Shown here piece after piece: positions 1 through 7,850 of a DNA stretch of 7,850 nucleotides. The translations under genes and the position numbers were made by a program. Under the pieces are notes generated by a model. It was given only the letters and a program-made list of their open reading frames with translations, was not told the DNA's origin and did no database searches. The stretch lies in IMG/VR virus record IMGVR_UViG_2690316241_000021, one strand, 5' to 3'. The DNA comes from a virus. Its lineage: Duplodnaviria > Heunggongvirae > Uroviricota > Caudoviricetes. How positions within the stretch are numbered: the first letter of the stretch is position 1; each line of letters starts with the position of its first letter.

Positions 1-483
1 ATGACGAAGAAAAAAGCACATAAACCTGGTTCAGCGACCATCGCGCTTAACAAGCGCGCCCGTCACGAATACTTTATCGAAGAAGAGTTCGAAGCGGGAC
101 TTGCCCTGCAAGGCTGGGAGGTTAAATCCCTGCGCGCAGGAAAAGCCAATATCAGCGACAGCTACGTCCTTCTGCGTGACGGAGAGGCATTTCTGTTTGG
201 CGCTAACATCACGCCAATGGCCGTGGCCTCCACGCATGTGGTGTGCGATCCTACCCGTACCCGCAAGTTACTTCTCAACCAGCGCGAACTGGACTCATTG
301 TACGGTCGCGTCAATCGAGAAGGCTATACCGTAGTGGCGCTCTCCCTGTACTGGAAAAATGCCTGGTGCAAAGTGAAAATCGGCGTCGCCAAAGGTAAAA
401 AACAGCACGATAAACGTTCAGATATCAAAGAACGCGAATGGCAGGTGGATAAAGCACGTATCATGAAAAACGCCCACCGTTAA
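1..483 (+). CDS. smpB: SsrA-binding protein SmpB
   Basis: Complete 160-aa ORF from ATG at 1 to TAA at 481-483. The protein is recognised from memory as enterobacterial SmpB, and it sits directly upstream of ssrA as in Enterobacteriaceae. Confidence 0.95.
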
Positions 484-697: not shown

Positions 698-1060
698 GGG
701 GCTGATTCTGGATTCGACGGGATTTGCGAAACCCAAGGTGCATGCCGAGGGGCGGTTGGCCTCGTAAAAAGCCGCAAAAAATAGTCGCAAACGACGAAAA
801 CTACGCTTTAGCAGCTTAATAACCTGCTTAGAGCCCTCTCTCCCTAGCCTCCGCTCTTAGGACGGGGATCAAGAGAGGTCAAACCCAAAAGAGATCGCGT
901 GGAAGCCCTGCCTGGGGTTGAAGCGTTAAAACTTAATCAGGCTAGTTTGTTAGTGGCGTGTCCGTCCGCAGCTGGCAAGCGAATGTAAAGACTGACTAAG
1001 CATGTAGTACCGAGGATGTAGGAATTTCGGACGCGGGTTCAACTCCCGCCAGCTCCACCA
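698..1060 (+). ncRNA. ssrA: tmRNA (transfer-messenger RNA, 10Sa RNA)
   Basis: Begins GGGGCTGATTCTGGATTCGACGGG at 698 and ends GGTTCAACTCCCGCCAGCTCCACCA at 1060 (363 nt), matching E. coli tmRNA as I recall it. It contains the tag reading frame and a tRNA-like 3' end with CCA. Confidence 0.95.
787..819 (+). other. tmRNA proteolysis-tag reading frame (ANDENYALAA, then stop)
   Basis: GCAAACGACGAAAACTACGCTTTAGCAGCTTAA inside ssrA translates to A-N-D-E-N-Y-A-L-A-A followed by a stop, the canonical E. coli degradation tag. Confidence 0.85.
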
Positions 1061-1190
1061 ATCATGATTGGACGGTGTAAGGACAACACCAACAAAAACA
1101 GGAAGTTAGCAGTCTCAGCAGGACACCGACCAGACGGTGAGGAGACAAAAAAGGATACGCAAAGGAGCCGCGGCTCTCAAGTGTGAAAGA

Positions 1191-1216
1191 AGCCCGCAAA
1201 TTGCGGGCTTTTTTAT
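1191..1216 (+). terminator. Rho-independent terminator downstream of ssrA
   Basis: GC-rich hairpin AGCCCGC-aaatt-GCGGGCT (1191-1209) followed by the T-tract TTTTTTATT. A short palindrome GAGCCGCGGCTC lies just upstream (1166-1177). Confidence 0.7.
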
Positions 1217-1269
1217 TGATCAGTCAACAATAAACAGTAACCGAATGAGAATTTAATAAGGATATTCAT

Positions 1270-2301
1270 ATGGAAGCTACTGTGGATTCGATTGATTTTC
1301 TGATCCGTAGTGAAGATGATTTTCTAAACTTTCTGGAAGAAATGAAAGCCCGAGAGGGGCTTGATTCTAAAGAGTTTATTTTCCCTAACGTAAAGTTTGC
1401 AGGCTGGCCATCCTTAGACATAAATGTAAAAGGAGAGCGGTATCATTCATCAATTACATCAGCAATGTTGTTTGGTATGTCAATGCTCAACGAGGAGATA
1501 CAGCGGGCGTTTGCAACCATACGATACGGATCGCAGAATCTTCAACGCTTGACTAATGAAGACAAGCAACGACTTGATATAAATTTTAAAATTAGCGAAG
1601 GTTCTAGTGATGCGGAAGGCACCACTGACAAGATCATCAACGCAGTAACTGATTTTTTGCGAGATACTATGTCTGGACTGAACGGCTGGCAGAAAATGCT
1701 TGTTATAATCACAATGGTTGGCGCGGCCAGCACATGTGGTTATCACTACATTTCAGAAAATGCCGTAACAGAAAGACATGCAACTGATCGGCAGGTTGAA
1801 ATTGCAAAAACCACATCCGATGGCATAAACAAAGCCATAGAAGCAACATTAGATTATAAAATCTATGGGAAATCAGCGATTAGCGATAAAGTTACTAGTC
1901 ACGGACAAGCAGGTAAAAGTGCTTTAGTGAAGCAATTAGCTGCTGATCCTACTGTCGAAACCGTGACTTTAGGAAATGAGAAACTAACACGACAAGACCT
2001 AAATACCTACAACAGCCGACAATCTGTAGATAGAGAACGTAAAGAACGAACTGATATATTTTCCATCAAAGGTGTAACCAGAACAGGGCCAACAAATCAG
2101 GATATTAATATTAACGTTGTTAGGGTCTCTAATGACGAATGCTTCACAATCAAAGCTTCAGCTGATGTTATCACCCAAGATGAGTTGACAGCTATTGTTG
2201 ACGCTTTGTCAAACAACTCTCATATTAAAATCAGTTACTTAGAGGTAATTGAAAAGGGTGCTGTTTCTATAGGTCAGTTCAACACTATTGTTTCAGAATA
2301 A
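1270..2301 (+). CDS. Hypothetical protein (343 aa), AT-rich accessory gene
   Basis: Long uninterrupted ORF with an SD-like AAGGA 7 nt upstream of the ATG. By eye it is clearly more AT-rich than smpB (not computed). One internal hydrophobic stretch (WQKMLVIITMVGAASTCGYHYI) could be a membrane helix. I recognise no conserved motif. Confidence 0.6.
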   Translation: MEATVDSIDFLIRSEDDFLNFLEEMKAREGLDSKEFIFPNVKFAGWPSLDINVKGERYHSSITSAMLFGMSMLNEEIQRAFATIRYGSQNLQRLTNEDKQRLDINFKISEGSSDAEGTTDKIINAVTDFLRDTMSGLNGWQKMLVIITMVGAASTCGYHYISENAVTERHATDRQVEIAKTTSDGINKAIEATLDYKIYGKSAISDKVTSHGQAGKSALVKQLAADPTVETVTLGNEKLTRQDLNTYNSRQSVDRERKERTDIFSIKGVTRTGPTNQDININVVRVSNDECFTIKASADVITQDELTAIVDALSNNSHIKISYLEVIEKGAVSIGQFNTIVSE

Positions 2302-2352
2302 TCACTTAACCCCATTTATGTCGGTTGAGGTTATAAGTCACGGAGACCAGAT

Positions 2353-2697
2353 ATGTCCTTAAAGTATGCACATGAAAAATTTCATACTGCAGTACTTACT
2401 CTTGCGGGCCATGGAAGTATTCAAGAACGCTTGATTAATTCGTATGTTTTTAGCCTTGGGCATCTTAAAACAGCCGATGATATTCCAAATGCCTTACAAA
2501 GCAGGTTCGATGAATTATGTAAGGAACTGACTAAGTTTGATGCCACTGGCGATGAGGGGCGAGTTCAAGCAACAGTATCAAAACTTAACGATTTCGAGAT
2601 CAATAAACTGATCGAAGATATTGTCAGTCTTAACGATGATATTTGCATGAAATTGGCTCTGACGGATGAGACTTACCAAGACATACACCAAAGTTAA
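2353..2697 (+). CDS. Hypothetical protein (114 aa), probable operon partner of the upstream ORF
   Basis: ORF with SD GGAGA 6 nt upstream of the ATG, 51 nt after the stop of the 343-aa ORF, same strand, similarly AT-rich. Its last four codons and stop (I-H-Q-S-TAA, 2683-2697) lie inside the outer end of the left inverted repeat. No recognisable motif. Confidence 0.5.
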   Translation: MSLKYAHEKFHTAVLTLAGHGSIQERLINSYVFSLGHLKTADDIPNALQSRFDELCKELTKFDATGDEGRVQATVSKLNDFEINKLIEDIVSLNDDICMKLALTDETYQDIHQS

Positions 2698-2724
2698 TTG
2701 ATTAAATTCAAAAAGTTAACGTTC

Positions 2725-2756
2725 AACCAGCCAGTTTTTGGCTGGTTTATTGTCTT
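2725..2756. terminator. Hairpin terminator (left copy), probably bidirectional
   Basis: Stem AACCAGCCA-gtttt-TGGCTGGTT (2725-2747) followed by TTTATTGTCTT on the plus strand. This suits termination of the 343/114-aa operon. On the minus strand it follows the 70-aa ORF with a weaker T-rich tail. Confidence 0.5.
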
Positions 2757-2781
2757 ATAATATTCTTGCTCGAATGATGCA

Positions 2782-2994
2782 CTATTTATGATGTAATCCG
2801 GACATCAGTTCATGGACAAGATTATCTCTTTCATTGTGTTGCAACCGTAAATGCATAGCAAAAAGGTGAGCACTATCCTCATTCCTCTTCAAGCCATGCT
2901 GTTCAAGATACCCGAAAAAACGGCTTCTCTTATCCGCTATTTCCTGAGTCTGACGTGCAACATTTACCAAATTTTCTAGCGTTTTTCTTGGCAT
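2782..2994 (-). CDS. Hypothetical small protein (70 aa), left copy
   Basis: ORF with a strong SD (AGGAGG, 7-nt spacer) lying downstream of the invertase within the repeat arm and followed by the hairpin. Identical to the copy at 6580-6792. Function not recognised. Confidence 0.55.
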   Translation of the reverse strand: MPRKTLENLVNVARQTQEIADKRSRFFGYLEQHGLKRNEDSAHLFAMHLRLQHNERDNLVHELMSGLHHK

Positions 2995-3192
2995 ACTATT
3001 TCCTCCTGAAATTGTTGTAATTCACTAGGATATTCATTTTAATTTGTATCATTTAGTACCAAAACCGCTATCAATTAACAAAGCCATCGTTGTGGTTTAC
3101 CTTGCAGCCGTTTTTTGTCATTGACTCTATGTGAAAATAATGAATCATCATGAGATTGGCTCACACGTTCTTGAATTCGACGAGCTGTGTCT

Positions 3193-3747
3193 TTATTTAT
3201 CTCCTGCCGGAAACCTCTGATACAAAGTCGATACGCCAACATCATAGATAATCGCAACTTTCTGGCGCGGAACTCCTGATGCAATTAATCGTCCGGCTTG
3301 TGCCCATTGTTCTGGTGTAAGTTTGGGACGACGTCCACCAATTCGTCCCTGTGCGCGAGCAGCTTCCAGTCCAGCTTTTGTTCGTTCAACAATCAGTTCT
3401 CGTTCCATTTCAGCCAGGGCCCCCATCACATGAAAGAAAAAGCGCCCCATTGGGGTACTGGTATCAATTGAATCCGTCAGACTACGAAAGTTGATGCCTC
3501 GTTCGCGCAACTCCTCCACCAGCACGACAAGATGCCGCATACTGCGCCCCAGTCGGTCCAGTTTCCAGACCACCAGCGTATCGCCTGCCGATAATGTCCT
3601 GAGCAGTTTTTTCAGTCCCGGCCTTTCGGACTTTGTACCGCTTATCTTGTCTTCAAAAATCAGCTCGCATCCTGCACAGTTCAGCGCATTACGTTGTAGA
3701 TCTGTGTTCTGGTCATTTGTTGACACACGTACATAGCCAATAAGCAT
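3193..3747 (-). CDS. Serine DNA invertase, Hin/Gin/Cin/Pin family (left copy)
   Basis: The protein MLIGYVRVSTNDQNTDLQRNAL...VVWKLDRLGRSM...GRFFFHVMGALAEMERELIVERT...KVAIIYDVGVSTLYQRFPAGDK carries the catalytic-serine N-terminal motif of small serine recombinases and a Hin-like C-terminal HTH. The start is placed at the internal ATG (3747), which is preceded by SD AGGGAGA. The ORF track's upstream ATG at 3783 would add 12 residues. Confidence 0.9.
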   Translation of the reverse strand: MLIGYVRVSTNDQNTDLQRNALNCAGCELIFEDKISGTKSERPGLKKLLRTLSAGDTLVVWKLDRLGRSMRHLVVLVEELRERGINFRSLTDSIDTSTPMGRFFFHVMGALAEMERELIVERTKAGLEAARAQGRIGGRRPKLTPEQWAQAGRLIASGVPRQKVAIIYDVGVSTLYQRFPAGDK

Positions 3748-3773
3748 GGTAGATCTCCCTGACAAAAGCAGGA

Positions 3774-4286
3774 ATGATGCCATTTGCTCGTTATTTCTGC
3801 ATTTTCATAAACGTTGGTTTGGGAGAAGGTTCGGCATTACCCGTTGGTGTGCCTGTTCCGTGGCCTTCCGCCACTCCGCCAACGGGGTGGCTAAAATGTA
3901 ACGGAGCAGTATTTTCTTCTGAAAAGTACCCAAATCTGGCAAAGGCTTACCCAACATTAAAATTACCAGATTTACGCGGTGAATTTATTCGTGGCTGGGA
4001 TGATGGGCGCGGGATTGACTCTGGTCGTAACTTATTATCTGCACAGAATGATGCAATTCAGAATATTGTTGGTTCTTTTGGGCGTACCCAGCTTTTTAGA
4101 GACGTACTTAGTTCAGGGCCATTTAGTCAACATGGGCAAGTATTATCTACAGGTCTAAAGGAAGCCGCAATTATTGAGGGTTATGGCGCTTATAACTGGA
4201 CATTCGACGCATCTCGCTCAGTTCGCACAGCATCTGAAACCCGCTCCCGTAACATCGCCTTTAATTATATTGTGAGGGCTGCATGA
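3774..4286 (+). CDS. Tail-fibre variable C-terminal cassette Sv (receptor-binding domain); not fused to a constant region in this orientation
   Basis: The frame is open across site A. The translation contains VPVPWPSATPPTGW...YP.L...YP...PDLRG and ends ...NIAFNYIVRAA, matching the C-terminal region of lambda Stf / Mu S-type side tail fibres as I recall them. The ATG-ATG at 3774 is probably not the physiological start. The stop overlaps the tfa start (ATGA). Confidence 0.7.
   Translation: MMPFARYFCIFINVGLGEGSALPVGVPVPWPSATPPTGWLKCNGAVFSSEKYPNLAKAYPTLKLPDLRGEFIRGWDDGRGIDSGRNLLSAQNDAIQNIVGSFGRTQLFRDVLSSGPFSQHGQVLSTGLKEAAIIEGYGAYNWTFDASRSVRTASETRSRNIAFNYIVRAA
3802..3827. promoter_or_regulatory. 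hix/gix-like 26-bp crossover site A
   Basis: TTTTCATAAACG-TT-GGTTTGGGAGAA: two imperfect 12-bp inverted half-sites around a 2-bp core, resembling hixL and gix as recalled. It lies about 20 bp upstream of the invertase gene and at the inner edge of the repeat arm. Confidence 0.7.
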
Positions 4287-4888
4287 TAAGTAAAGCTGTA
4301 TTAAATAATGAACTCATCGCCACAAAGGCCGGAGACATTACCGTTTATAATTATGATGGTGAAACACGGGAATATATTTCCACATCAACTGAATATCTTG
4401 CTGTGGGTGTTGGTATCCCGGCATGTTCCTGTTTAGATGCTCCTGGCTCATATAAAGCTGGTTATGCAATTTGCCGTTCTGCAGATTTTAACTCATGGGA
4501 ATATGTGCCAGACCATCGCGGTGAAATCGTCTATAGCACCGAAACAGGAGAATCAAAAGAAATCACACTTCCGGGTGATTACCCTGAAAATACAACCACT
4601 ATCGCCCCGTTAACGTCATACGATAAATGGGATGGTGAGAAATGGGTGACCGATACTGAGGCACAGCATAACGCCGCAGTAGACGCGGCAGAAGTACGGC
4701 GCCAGTCACTGATTGATGCTGCTATGGCTTCCATTAGTCTGATTCAGCTGAAATTGCAGGCCGGGCGGAAGCTGACGCAGGCAGAAACAACCCGGCTTAA
4801 CGCTGTGCTGGATTACATTGACGCGGTGACTGCAACAGATACCAGCACCGCGCCGGATGTCATCTGGCCTGAACTACCGGAGGCGTAG
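4283..4888 (+). CDS. tfa: Tail-fibre assembly chaperone (Tfa / Mu U family)
   Basis: 201-aa ORF whose start overlaps the Sv stop. Its C-terminus ...DTSTAPDVIWPELPEA and central ...W.YV.DHRG..VY... match the lambda Tfa family from memory. Confidence 0.85.
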   Translation: MISKAVLNNELIATKAGDITVYNYDGETREYISTSTEYLAVGVGIPACSCLDAPGSYKAGYAICRSADFNSWEYVPDHRGEIVYSTETGESKEITLPGDYPENTTTIAPLTSYDKWDGEKWVTDTEAQHNAAVDAAEVRRQSLIDAAMASISLIQLKLQAGRKLTQAETTRLNAVLDYIDAVTATDTSTAPDVIWPELPEA

Positions 4889-5303
4889 GCCATTCAATAT
4901 CTGGAGCACTGGAGGTATCAACCAGTTCCAGTGCGTCCAGATAATCCAGCCATAAATTATATTGTTCCAGCTCGTAACCTTTCAGACGACCAATAGCAGC
5001 TTTGCCAGGCCACTGATGGGTATTGATGTAGGTATTGACTTCTGAAACCAAAGATATCTTTTTCATTTCAGCCGCCAGCATCTCATCCTCTTTTGAAGGC
5101 GGCGGGGAATTAATCCATATTGGCCGTCCTGAACTGTCAGCGCCAATTTCTTTCCCTTCTGGATGCAGCCCAAGAAATTGCTCATATGTTTCTCTGGTAA
5201 TTTCAATAACATCATCAGGAAGCGTTCCCGCATCCTCATATTCTGGAAACAATTCTTGCAGATAAAAACTTTTACTTGCGGGTGAAAAGAATACTGAGTT
5301 CAT
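4860..5303 (-). CDS. tfa: Alternative tail-fibre assembly chaperone (Tfa' / Mu U' analogue)
   Basis: 147-aa ORF convergent with the other tfa, with 29 nt of 3' overlap. Its C-terminus ...VDTSSAPDIEWPTPPVVQAR carries the Tfa motif. It lies directly downstream of the second variable cassette. Confidence 0.8.
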   Translation of the reverse strand: MNSVFFSPASKSFYLQELFPEYEDAGTLPDDVIEITRETYEQFLGLHPEGKEIGADSSGRPIWINSPPPSKEDEMLAAEMKKISLVSEVNTYINTHQWPGKAAIGRLKGYELEQYNLWLDYLDALELVDTSSAPDIEWPTPPVVQAR

Positions 5304-5305
5304 TC

Positions 5306-5800
5306 TTACCGTCCAATGATTAACGCTGAGACGCTGGTATCTGAAGGAAAGGCTGCATTCAGTGGTTTGTCGACTTTGAACACAATCGTATTATTCCCCC
5401 TGACAGCGGCAAAAGAACAAACCGCCGTCGCGTATGAACCTGTAATATTACTGGATACACCACCATAAGCTGTTGTTGATACCAGAGGGATAACGCCCAG
5501 CACCTTATTAGGAAATACAAAGGGCAATGTGGCTGTGGCAATATAAGACTTATTAGAACCTGTAATGGCATAAGCATTATCAGTCATTCCATTCATCGCC
5601 ACTGGACCGCTTATACTTACAGTAACCATCTGAATGATTAGCCCGTCAGGTTGACGAATCACAAAATTTCCATTGCCACCAGTAACCGTCCAGAAAGACA
5701 TATCAGGGATTTGGTTTTCCCCGTTGCCCACATTTCGTTTTGCCGCTTCTCCCAAACCAACGTTTATGAAAATGCAGAAATAACGAGCAAATGGCATCAT
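5306..5800 (-). CDS. Alternative tail-fibre variable C-terminal cassette Sv'
   Basis: The frame is open across site B and shares the repeat-encoded prefix ...INVGLGE with Sv before diverging into a different sequence. Assigned by its mirror position and its pairing with Tfa'; the domain itself is not recognised by me. Confidence 0.6.
   Translation of the reverse strand: MMPFARYFCIFINVGLGEAAKRNVGNGENQIPDMSFWTVTGGNGNFVIRQPDGLIIQMVTVSISGPVAMNGMTDNAYAITGSNKSYIATATLPFVFPNKVLGVIPLVSTTAYGGVSSNITGSYATAVCSFAAVRGNNTIVFKVDKPLNAAFPSDTSVSALIIGR
5747..5772. promoter_or_regulatory. hix/gix-like 26-bp crossover site B
   Basis: TTCTCCCAAACC-AA-CGTTTATGAAAA, the exact reverse complement of site A, about 20 bp upstream of the right invertase copy. 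Confidence 0.7.
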
Positions 5801-5826: not shown

Positions 5827-6381
5827 ATGCTTATTGGCTATGTACGTGTGTCAACAAATGACCAGAACACAGATCTACAACGTAATGCGCTGAACTGTGC
5901 AGGATGCGAGCTGATTTTTGAAGACAAGATAAGCGGTACAAAGTCCGAAAGGCCGGGACTGAAAAAACTGCTCAGGACATTATCGGCAGGCGATACGCTG
6001 GTGGTCTGGAAACTGGACCGACTGGGGCGCAGTATGCGGCATCTTGTCGTGCTGGTGGAGGAGTTGCGCGAACGAGGCATCAACTTTCGTAGTCTGACGG
6101 ATTCAATTGATACCAGTACCCCAATGGGGCGCTTTTTCTTTCATGTGATGGGGGCCCTGGCTGAAATGGAACGAGAACTGATTGTTGAACGAACAAAAGC
6201 TGGACTGGAAGCTGCTCGCGCACAGGGACGAATTGGTGGACGTCGTCCCAAACTTACACCAGAACAATGGGCACAAGCCGGACGATTAATTGCATCAGGA
6301 GTTCCGCGCCAGAAAGTTGCGATTATCTATGATGTTGGCGTATCGACTTTGTATCAGAGGTTTCCGGCAGGAGATAAATAA
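5827..6381 (+). CDS. Serine DNA invertase, Hin/Gin/Cin/Pin family (right copy)
   Basis: Identical protein to the left copy. SD AGGGAGA lies 6 nt upstream of the ATG at 5827. It diverges outward from crossover site B. Confidence 0.9.
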   Translation: MLIGYVRVSTNDQNTDLQRNALNCAGCELIFEDKISGTKSERPGLKKLLRTLSAGDTLVVWKLDRLGRSMRHLVVLVEELRERGINFRSLTDSIDTSTPMGRFFFHVMGALAEMERELIVERTKAGLEAARAQGRIGGRRPKLTPEQWAQAGRLIASGVPRQKVAIIYDVGVSTLYQRFPAGDK

Positions 6382-6579: not shown

Positions 6580-6792
6580 ATGCCAAGAAAAACGCTAGAA
6601 AATTTGGTAAATGTTGCACGTCAGACTCAGGAAATAGCGGATAAGAGAAGCCGTTTTTTCGGGTATCTTGAACAGCATGGCTTGAAGAGGAATGAGGATA
6701 GTGCTCACCTTTTTGCTATGCATTTACGGTTGCAACACAATGAAAGAGATAATCTTGTCCATGAACTGATGTCCGGATTACATCATAAATAG
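6580..6792 (+). CDS. Hypothetical small protein (70 aa), right copy
   Basis: SD AGGAGG at 6567-6572 with a 7-nt spacer, then MPRKTLENLVNVARQTQEIADKRSRFFGYLEQHGLKRNEDSAHLFAMHLRLQHNERDNLVHELMSGLHHK. Followed by the hairpin at 6827-6849. Confidence 0.55.
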   Translation: MPRKTLENLVNVARQTQEIADKRSRFFGYLEQHGLKRNEDSAHLFAMHLRLQHNERDNLVHELMSGLHHK

Positions 6793-6818: not shown

Positions 6819-6849
6819 AGACAATAAACCAGCCAAAAACTGGCTGGTT
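6819..6849. terminator. Hairpin terminator (right copy), probably bidirectional
   Basis: AACCAGCCA-aaaac-TGGCTGGTT at 6827-6849. On the minus strand it is followed by TTTATTGTCTT, so it would stop transcripts coming from the tail-fibre constant region. Confidence 0.5.
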
Positions 6850-6872: not shown

Positions 6873-7196
6873 TCAATTAACTTTGGTGTATACTTCTCCC
6901 AAACCAAGGTTTTCGAGAGCCGTTTTCACCGTGCCATCAGATTTGATATCGCCAAACGGATTCTTGCGGCTTAACAGCAGCGCACGAAGCGCGGTAAGCA
7001 GCTGGTCATGCCGCCCCTTCTCCAGGCTGGCACCGGATGCCTCCACCACGCTGCAGAGTTCTTCCTGCAACATGTCAAAGTAGTCATCATCCAGATCGGT
7101 GGCAGGTGTGCCGGTCTGGGGGTTACCACGGGTAAAACCGTTCTTACCCGCGCCGAACTTATCCTTCTGCGCGGTTTTCGTGTCTATACGATGCAT
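6873..7196 (-). CDS. Tail-fibre N-terminal constant region (Sc analogue), ending in a repeat-encoded stub
   Basis: 107-aa ORF starting 3 nt after the stop of the upstream baseplate gene. Its 3' end runs through crossover site C and then reads only V-Y-T-K-V-N-stop from the repeat's outer end. Assigned from position and the in-frame crossover site, not from recognised homology. Confidence 0.55.
6894..6919. promoter_or_regulatory. hix/gix-like 26-bp crossover site C, inside the 3' end of the tail-fibre constant region
   Basis: TTCTCCCAAACC-AA-GGTTTTCGAGAG. Its first 14 nt are identical to site B and it is a near-palindrome of the hixL type. It lies 3 bp outside the repeat arm. On the minus strand it encodes ...ENLGLGE, in the same frame relative to the core as the ...NVGLGE encoded at sites A and B. 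Confidence 0.65.
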
Positions 7197-7199
7197 GGA

Positions 7200-7850
<651 letters not shown>

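Follow-up and report, generated by a model that had tools for sequence, protein, structure and literature searches.

Two gene ends at the termini of an inverted repeat in a Pin-type tail-fibre switch: a native stop codon on the left and a novel joint on the right

An invertible tail-fibre switch beside ssrA

The DNA analysed here, called the window, is a stretch of 7,850 nt from the IMG/VR virus record IMGVR_UViG_2690316241_000021, and its features are collected in Table 1. The product of pin carries the two domains of a serine invertase (PF00239, E=1.5e-51; PF02796, E=3.6e-13), and its residues 1 to 181 match the structures of Gin of phage Mu, 3uj3 and 4m6f, at E values of about 1e-93. RefSeq calls the gene pinE in three collinear loci, L001, L002 and L003. 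Each of these loci holds a single pin, in the order orf343, orf114, orf70, pin, crossover site, invertible segment, crossover site, Sc and ymfQ, where Sc is the constant N-terminal region of the tail fibre. Within this order, the terminator stands between orf114 and orf70, the crossover site that follows pin is site A, the one that precedes Sc is site C, and the segment between them holds two variable cassettes that point towards each other, Sv followed by its assembly gene tfa, and Sv' with its own gene, tfa'. L001 and L002 differ in that the segment is inverted exactly between the sites, and both isomers are natural. The crossover sites of the window, A, B and C, are each 26 bp long and consist of a half-site followed by TT-GGTTTGGGAGAA, and all three fit the consensus given in Table 3 of PMC4134206. 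Thus, a recombinase with resolvase and helix-turn-helix domains is found together with sites made of two 12-bp half-sites around a 2-bp core, with opposed cassettes and with both orientations of the segment. On these comparative grounds, the locus is an ordinary Pin-type invertible tail-fibre switch of the Gin/Cin/Hin family.

Table 1. Features of the window, with positions, strands and the observations on which each assignment rests
Feature	Position	Strand	Observations
smpB	1..483	+	160-aa ORF; annotated smpB in the collinear loci L001 to L003
ssrA (tmRNA)	698..1060	+	ARAGORN, tag ANDENYALAA; chromosomal anchor of the island/prophage remnant
orf343	1270..2301	+	hypothetical, phage-associated; phrog_6191 (unknown function), E=7e-38, full length; no Pfam match
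orf114 (WP_000054185.1)	2353..2697	+	C terminus native by comparison; last 15 nt within left arm
Left arm	2683..3828		perfect inverted repeat; taken as the original module copy (orf114 3' end, terminator, orf70, pin, site A); flanked as in every single-copy locus
Terminator-like hairpin	2725..2747	+	terminator scan; between convergent orf114 and orf70; second copy 6827..6849
orf70	2782..2994	-	hypothetical; ORF list; always adjoins pin; second copy 6580..6792 (+)
pin (pinE, WP_000904997.1)	3193..3747	-	serine DNA invertase; Resolvase and HTH_7 domains; second copy 5827..6381 (+)
Crossover site A	3802..3827	+	TTTTCATAAACG-TT-GGTTTGGGAGAA; fits 26-bp invertase consensus
Sv	3829..4286	+	collar domain; variable cassette for the tail-fibre C terminus; joined to Sc in L001, unfused in window
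Assembly gene cognate to Sv (tfaE-like)	4283..4888	+	Caudo_TAP domain
Assembly gene cognate to Sv'	4860..5303	-	Caudo_TAP domain
Sv'	5306..5745	-	alternative variable cassette; weak Gp53-like_C match; fused to Sc in L002, unfused in window
Right arm	5746..6891		extra inverted module copy; L002 4183-5328 in reverse complement; seen in no other genome examined
Crossover site B	5747..5772	-	same as site A, in right arm; sequence comparison
Sc	6873..7196	-	tail-fibre constant N-terminal region, premature end; matches tail-fibre PHROG profiles
Filler base at novel joint	6892		A on plus, T on minus; templated by neither parent
Crossover site C	6894..6919	-	CTCTCGAAAACC-TT-GGTTTGGGAGAA; end of constant region, intact; same site joins Sc to Sv/Sv' in L001 to L003
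ymfQ-like baseplate gene (Mu Gp48 family)	7200..7772	-	Phage_Mu_Gp48 domain; annotation in L001/L002; 5' end replaced by IS3-family element
IS3-family transposase gene start	7832..7850	+	truncates the prophage; window 6893-7850 = L001 7246-8203; IS3 coding sequence starts at L001 8185

The element that houses the switch is, judged by its gene content, a cryptic Mu-like prophage remnant beside ssrA, truncated by an IS3-family element. The IS3-family element (window 7773 to 7850; L001 8185 to 9362) stands in place of the 5' end of ymfQ and of all that lay upstream, including baseplate J, gp46 and V, and is followed by a truncated ypjA/ehaD autotransporter gene. The baseplate J, gp46, V and accompanying genes are present in L003, L009 and L010. 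The gene orf343 always accompanies orf114, beside ssrA or other ssrA-integrated elements (L006, L011 and L013), and neither orf114 nor orf70 had a match in Pfam or PHROG. The match of Sv' to Gp53-like_C (E=5e-5) scored 24.2 bits, just below the Pfam cut-off of 24.9 bits. Several genomes (H25 to H30; the Ec-042 lineage and AR24.2b) match the window only to 3667, where the gene is annotated "recombinase family protein," and these may represent another independent decay state of the locus.

The exact Pin protein was found in ten distinct genomic contexts, all of them single-copy and all with the order pin, orf70, orf114, orf343. The window is collinear with L002 apart from 1147 extra nt, namely, the right arm plus one base, and the two arms form a perfect inverted repeat of 1146 nt that is 100% complementary. 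The structure bearing the duplication was absent from 5426 complete E. coli genomes, the GTDB representative genomes, IMG/VR and the JGI metagenomes.

The two outer ends of the repeat

A preliminary description of the window had claimed that orf114 and Sc both take their stop codons from the repeat's outer terminus, and we found the codons within the arms. The terminal codons of orf114, ATA CAC CAA AGT TAA (2683 to 2697), are all inside the left arm, and the first 15 nt of that arm do encode I-H-Q-S and the stop, as had been described. On the minus strand, Sc ends with the codons GAA GTA TAC ACC AAA GTT AAT TGA. The right arm had been credited with the whole of V-Y-T-K-V-N and TGA; Y-T-K-V-N and TGA (6890 to 6873) are indeed all inside it, but to the V codon it gives the third base only (6891), as the base at 6892 is an extra one from neither parent and G6893 is part of crossover site C. 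The same 19 nt of the arm end are read in different frames by orf114 and Sc, which confirms that one terminal sequence ends both genes. The outer 23 nt of the arm contain a stop in each of the three frames (TAA at 2695, TGA at 2699 and TAA at 2703), and an ORF that enters the outer end in any frame stops after at most 6 sense codons. Across the whole window, 28% of random entry points reach a stop within 6 codons, and all three frames are closed within 6 codons at just 1.2% of positions. Closure of three frames over so short a distance is consistent with a genuine gene end closely followed by a terminator hairpin, and Sc stops after 6 codons in the right arm because the AT-rich end of orf114 has stops in all three frames. 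We conclude that the repeat itself is beyond chance and that the shared termination of orf114 and Sc is unsurprising and trivial in cause.

The left terminus, at 2683, is by comparison with single-copy loci no joint, and orf114 keeps its native C terminus and its own stop. When the window was compared with complete E. coli genomes, the orf114 protein was identical in the single-pin loci L001 to L003, and homologues in unrearranged loci thus have the same ending, ...YQDIHQS*. The 90 nt across 2683 were intact, once per genome, in 46 of the 5426 complete E. coli genomes, and no partial match among the 5426 placed them in another context. Moreover, two relatives without pin (L004 and L005, 86 to 87% identical) remain collinear with the window over 2683, from about 2015/2185 to 2821. 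Since the left end is intact in single-pin loci and the relatives without pin are collinear, we take the left arm to be the original and the right arm to be the copy, with 2683 marking no more than the place in native DNA at which the copied stretch starts. Homology to the diverged metagenomic/Logan relatives of orf343 and orf114 stops at about 2821 (805 in L004 and 635 in L005), inside the 3' end of orf70, with a different gene beyond. On this comparison, the older boundary, where the orf343-orf114 module gives way to the pin module, lies near 2821.

The preliminary description had gone further and proposed that both outer ends are rearrangement joints and that the 114-aa protein may have lost or swapped its native C terminus, a combination that we regard as very improbable. 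A hint in its favour comes from P0002 and P0003, diverged orf114 homologues of 108 aa (84 to 86% identical) that end six residues early with ...LALTERAY*, near the arm boundary. The DNA that encodes them, however, is collinear over 2683 to about 2821, and the two proteins are shorter because a TAA in L004/L005 replaces the CAA (Q109) of E. coli orf114 at codon 109, which is a point difference and not a swapped C terminus. The idea that 2683 is an ancient module boundary, to which the same short homologues had pointed, was ruled out by the same collinearity. Moreover, all single-pin loci carry the identical 114-aa protein together with the identical downstream DNA. Thus, the proposal holds for the right end, where Sc is cut off from its cassettes, and fails for the left, and an annotation of orf114 as C-terminally altered is unwarranted. 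Still less credible is a mobile cassette, in which the 1146-nt block would move as a unit and insert beside crossover sites by a true element terminus, ATACACC..., at its outer end. A discrete block with a recombinase does stand twice in the window, the second time next to a recombination site, as such a cassette might, but the outer end did not appear with different flanks in different genomes: it was joined to orf114 in 46 of the 46 complete genomes with the block and in no other context. The diverged relatives without pin keep the outer 140 nt or so contiguous with orf114, and the older module boundary is the one near 2821 rather than 2683.

The right terminus is, by comparison with unrearranged loci, a true novel joint, in that its sequence is new, and it severs Sc from the variable cassettes. 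Sc matches the N-terminal 100 or so positions of tail-fibre PHROG profiles (e.g., phrog_1396, E=1e-54), and it is 107 aa long in the window, with the ending VYTKVN*, against 247 to 266 aa for its full-length homologues. In the unrearranged loci, Sc runs past ...NLGLGE into Sv (253 aa in L001 and 266 aa in L003) or Sv' (247 aa in L002), and comparison of the C termini thus marks the end in the window as non-native. The truncated product was not on record in an exact-protein look-up, and none of the 5426 complete E. coli genomes searched spans the joint at 6891 to 6893. The parental sequences read GAAG|C (with Sv') or GAAG|G (with Sv) on one side and GAC|ATACACC on the other, and the joint (6891|6892|6893) reads GAAG-T-ATACACC. 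It lies 13 to 14 nt outside the core of site C, which is intact, and falls exactly at 6893, the first base common to the Sc-Sv and Sc-Sv' junctions. The preliminary description had looked to microhomology at the joints; comparison with the parental sequences found none at the right joint, and one untemplated base is there instead. An AAG near both parental ends was considered as microhomology and rejected, as it would yield GAAG-ACATACACC and the observed sequence is GAAG-TATACACC. A natural variable cassette starting GAAG-TAT was considered as donor of the filler base and likewise rejected, as the partial matches were to an unrelated cassette reading GAAT-TAT. The joint is the single new junction in the structure, and all other junctions are those of isomer L001 or isomer L002.

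Origin of the extra copy

We give an even chance to the account in which the left end is native, the right end belongs to an extra copy, and the duplication is real, private to this sequence and later inverted by Pin. In that account, a single non-homologous join, GGGAGAAG-T-ATACACC, would have generated a tandem duplication of 1147 nt of the pin module, and inversion by Pin from site A to site C would then have converted the direct repeat, which is unstable, to a stable inverted one. Alternatively, a two-step template switch with re-entry through the 15-nt homology of the sites would give the same product. The extra block would consist of the last 15 nt of orf114, the terminator, orf70, pin and a crossover site (1146 nt plus the filler base) and would have come to lie between site C and Sv', so that Sc would run into the copied end of orf114 in another frame and stop after 6 codons. 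When recombination between sites A and C was carried out in silico, inversion produced a perfect tandem repeat with a period of 1147 and the junction ...GGGAGAAG-T-ATACACC..., and the Sc-Sv product was intact at 253 aa, one residue different from that of L001. Deletion in silico of the 1147 nt between the cores of sites B and C yielded a sequence that differs from L002 at 3 of 6703 nt and encodes the same 247-aa tail protein, and inversion in silico between sites A and B left Sc truncated.

The reading of the structure as a non-homologous tandem duplication of the pin module captured by Pin inversion, and hence as a three-site, three-state switch (OFF, Sc-Sv and Sc-Sv') with one invertase copy inside the invertible segment, is one to which we assign slightly less than an even chance. 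If the structure is real, both the present state and its isomer by A x B inversion would be OFF, with Sc at 107 aa. Inversion between A and C would give Sc-Sv, and deletion between B and C would give the wild-type Sc-Sv' locus and a 1147-nt pin circle. Sites B and C are direct repeats, and the wild-type invertases Gin and Hin disfavour deletion between directly repeated sites. The rearrangement would probably be neutral, since the other baseplate and tail genes were lost to the IS3-family element and no virion is possible.

Serine invertases exchange strands at the 2-bp core, and two natural sequences related to the window have joints at that place. A secondary, or quasi, crossover site lies within orf114 at 2575 to 2600 (plus strand) and reads GTATCAAAACTT-AA-CGATTTCGAGAT. 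In L006 (GCA_042170565.1, ABUVSP010000049.1; 4560 to 5788), segment 2589 to 3813 is inverted between this quasi-site and site A, with the joint at the core, and the inversion splits orf114 and yields a 122-aa fusion protein, P0005. Thus, to judge from this one natural isolate, Pin can flip its own gene through a secondary site. In L017 (GCA_019008335.1, JAETNI010000001.1; 1900 to 5110), a hix-type half and a pix-type half are fused at the core of a hybrid site that bounds the segment, TTATCAAAAACC-TT-GGTTTGGGAGAA, which suggests cross-recombination of a flagellar phase-variation switch with the tail-fibre switch. A flagellin gene, a gene of the flagellar-repressor family (PF03614) and a second invertase (187 aa, its gene about 66% identical to pin in DNA) stand in L017 where Sc would be.

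The outer joint of the window is, by its position, not invertase-made, and the invertase appears to have produced the inner junctions alone. The joint sits 13 to 14 nt off the core and lacks microhomology, whereas the joints of L006 and L017 sit at the core, and it shows neither the central dinucleotide nor the hybrid half-sites of a conservative site-specific joint. Natural use of the secondary site in orf114, recombination of heterologous sites in L017 and documented use of quasi-sites by Cin (Iida and Hiestand-Nauer 1987, cited in PMC4134206) all lend some colour to the idea that Pin made the outer joint through a quasi-site at the end of orf114, with inversion, excision and re-integration of a pin circle then giving the structure. 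Site C, however, is intact on both sides of its core with the new sequence beginning some distance away, the native left flank GAGACTTACCAAGAC is without any GGTTTGGGAGAAG half-site to carry along, and the known quasi-site is at 2575 to 2600 and not at 2683. A Pin-made joint near 2683 was rejected by the joint position and would need a donor that natively reads core-GGTTTGGGAGAAGT-ATACACC, and we consider such an origin highly improbable. An assembly artefact is a far more serious candidate, though we place it somewhat below an even chance. Here, the isolate would have a single-pin locus and its culture would mix the isomers, such that the assembler or a later finishing step stitched B-Sv of one isomer to the reversed Sv'-B of the other, and, as part of the same reading and with the same doubt, the dangling end would then have been abutted to a contig starting at site C. 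The structure is unique to the window among all collections searched, its arms are 100% identical and every junction save 6891/6893 is a genuine junction of one isomer or the other, just as an assembly chimera would look. Moreover, the joint is at the edge of isomer-shared sequence, where a de Bruijn assembly of a mixed population would start a unitig and where a random illegitimate break would fall by a coincidence of about 1 in 1000, and it is without homology and bears one stray filler base that a real event leaves without explanation. Merging alternative-allele contigs of invertible tail-fibre regions has been warned to cause "artefactual duplications in phage regions" (Forde et al. 2014, PMC4134206), and another assembly has mishandled this very locus as a "circular plasmid." On the other side, a wrong but legal walk through the graph would run on into the reverse-complemented orf114 and not jump at 2683 to site C, so that the artefact would itself depend on an unsupported join. 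The long reads of modern complete genomes span a structure of 4.2 kb, and a consensus should not invent a joint. Finally, real rearrangements are common at the locus, as seen in the IS3 truncation, the inversion of L006 and the hybrid of L017.

The "circular plasmid" just mentioned is a RefSeq record of 2637 bp (L007, NZ_CP148395.1, pZ1323HEC0010-5) that equals window 1177 to 3813, its end coinciding exactly with the core of site A. It contains orf343, orf114, orf70 and pinE only, and the genome has no other copy of the region. None of the complete genomes searched has a chromosomal joint reciprocal to such a deletion, and the closing joint of the record is without a convincing partner site; a real excised pin circle was rejected on both counts. 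The record is probably no plasmid but a fragment that the assembly left unplaced.

The conclusions on the stop codons are identical whether the structure is a real rearrangement or an artefact. If it is an artefact, the cell contains neither the truncated Sc nor a second pin. Until reads confirm them, the 107-aa "tail protein" and the second pinE are best regarded as a truncation and a duplication private to this sequence and should not be propagated.

Relation to known inversion systems

The closest known systems are Pin with the P segment of the e14 element of E. coli K-12, Gin with the G segment of phage Mu and Cin with the C segment of phage P1. Like these, the window has a serine invertase, one very close to Gin, and inverted crossover sites of 26 bp around a 2-bp core. 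Likewise, the constant 5' part of the tail-fibre gene lies outside the invertible segment, the two mirror-image variable C-terminal cassettes each have an assembly gene of their own, and both isomers occur among genomes, in L001 and L002. By analogy, a Fis-dependent enhancer is expected in the 5' part of pin. The window differs from Pin, Gin and Cin in that its locus stands beside ssrA in an IS3-truncated remnant, in that a second, inverted copy of pin and orf70 lies between Sc and the segment (in the window only), and in that there are three sites and an OFF state with Sc fused to neither cassette. The invertase family and the crossover consensus are summarised in PMC4134206 (Table 3).

With more than two crossover sites and overlapping segments, the window also resembles the multiple-inversion systems, Min of plasmid p15B (Sandmeier et al. 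1990, cited in PMC5903667) and the R64 shufflon, as its A x B and A x C segments would overlap if the sequence is real. In Min and the shufflon, however, several functional C-terminal cassettes are shuffled and conserved, whereas the third "cassette" of the window is six out-of-frame codons from the end of another gene. The alternative ending there is VYTKVN*, the arrangement was absent from all other genomes searched and is private to one sequence, and one of the overlapping segments holds the invertase gene itself. Quasi-site recombination by Cin and Gin (Iida and Hiestand-Nauer 1987, cited in PMC4134206) has its match in L006, where the joint is at the core, and not in the window, where the joint is neither at a core nor at a look-alike site. 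The window shares with the artefacts of Forde et al. (2014, PMC4134206) a duplication confined to the invertible region, identical copies and the junctions of both isomers. Unlike those artefacts, which involve whole alternative contigs, it also needs an unsupported abutment and a stray base.

The switch itself is textbook, and the window is at most a private variant of it and possibly not real. Its biological weight is little, as the locus belongs to a dead prophage remnant, and the two stops coincide because the gene end that was copied happens to close all three frames. If the structure is real, it would be a natural example, of modest interest, of an illegitimate duplication stabilised by site-specific inversion. 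It would then capture a possible early stage in the rise of systems with several inversion sites, such as Min.
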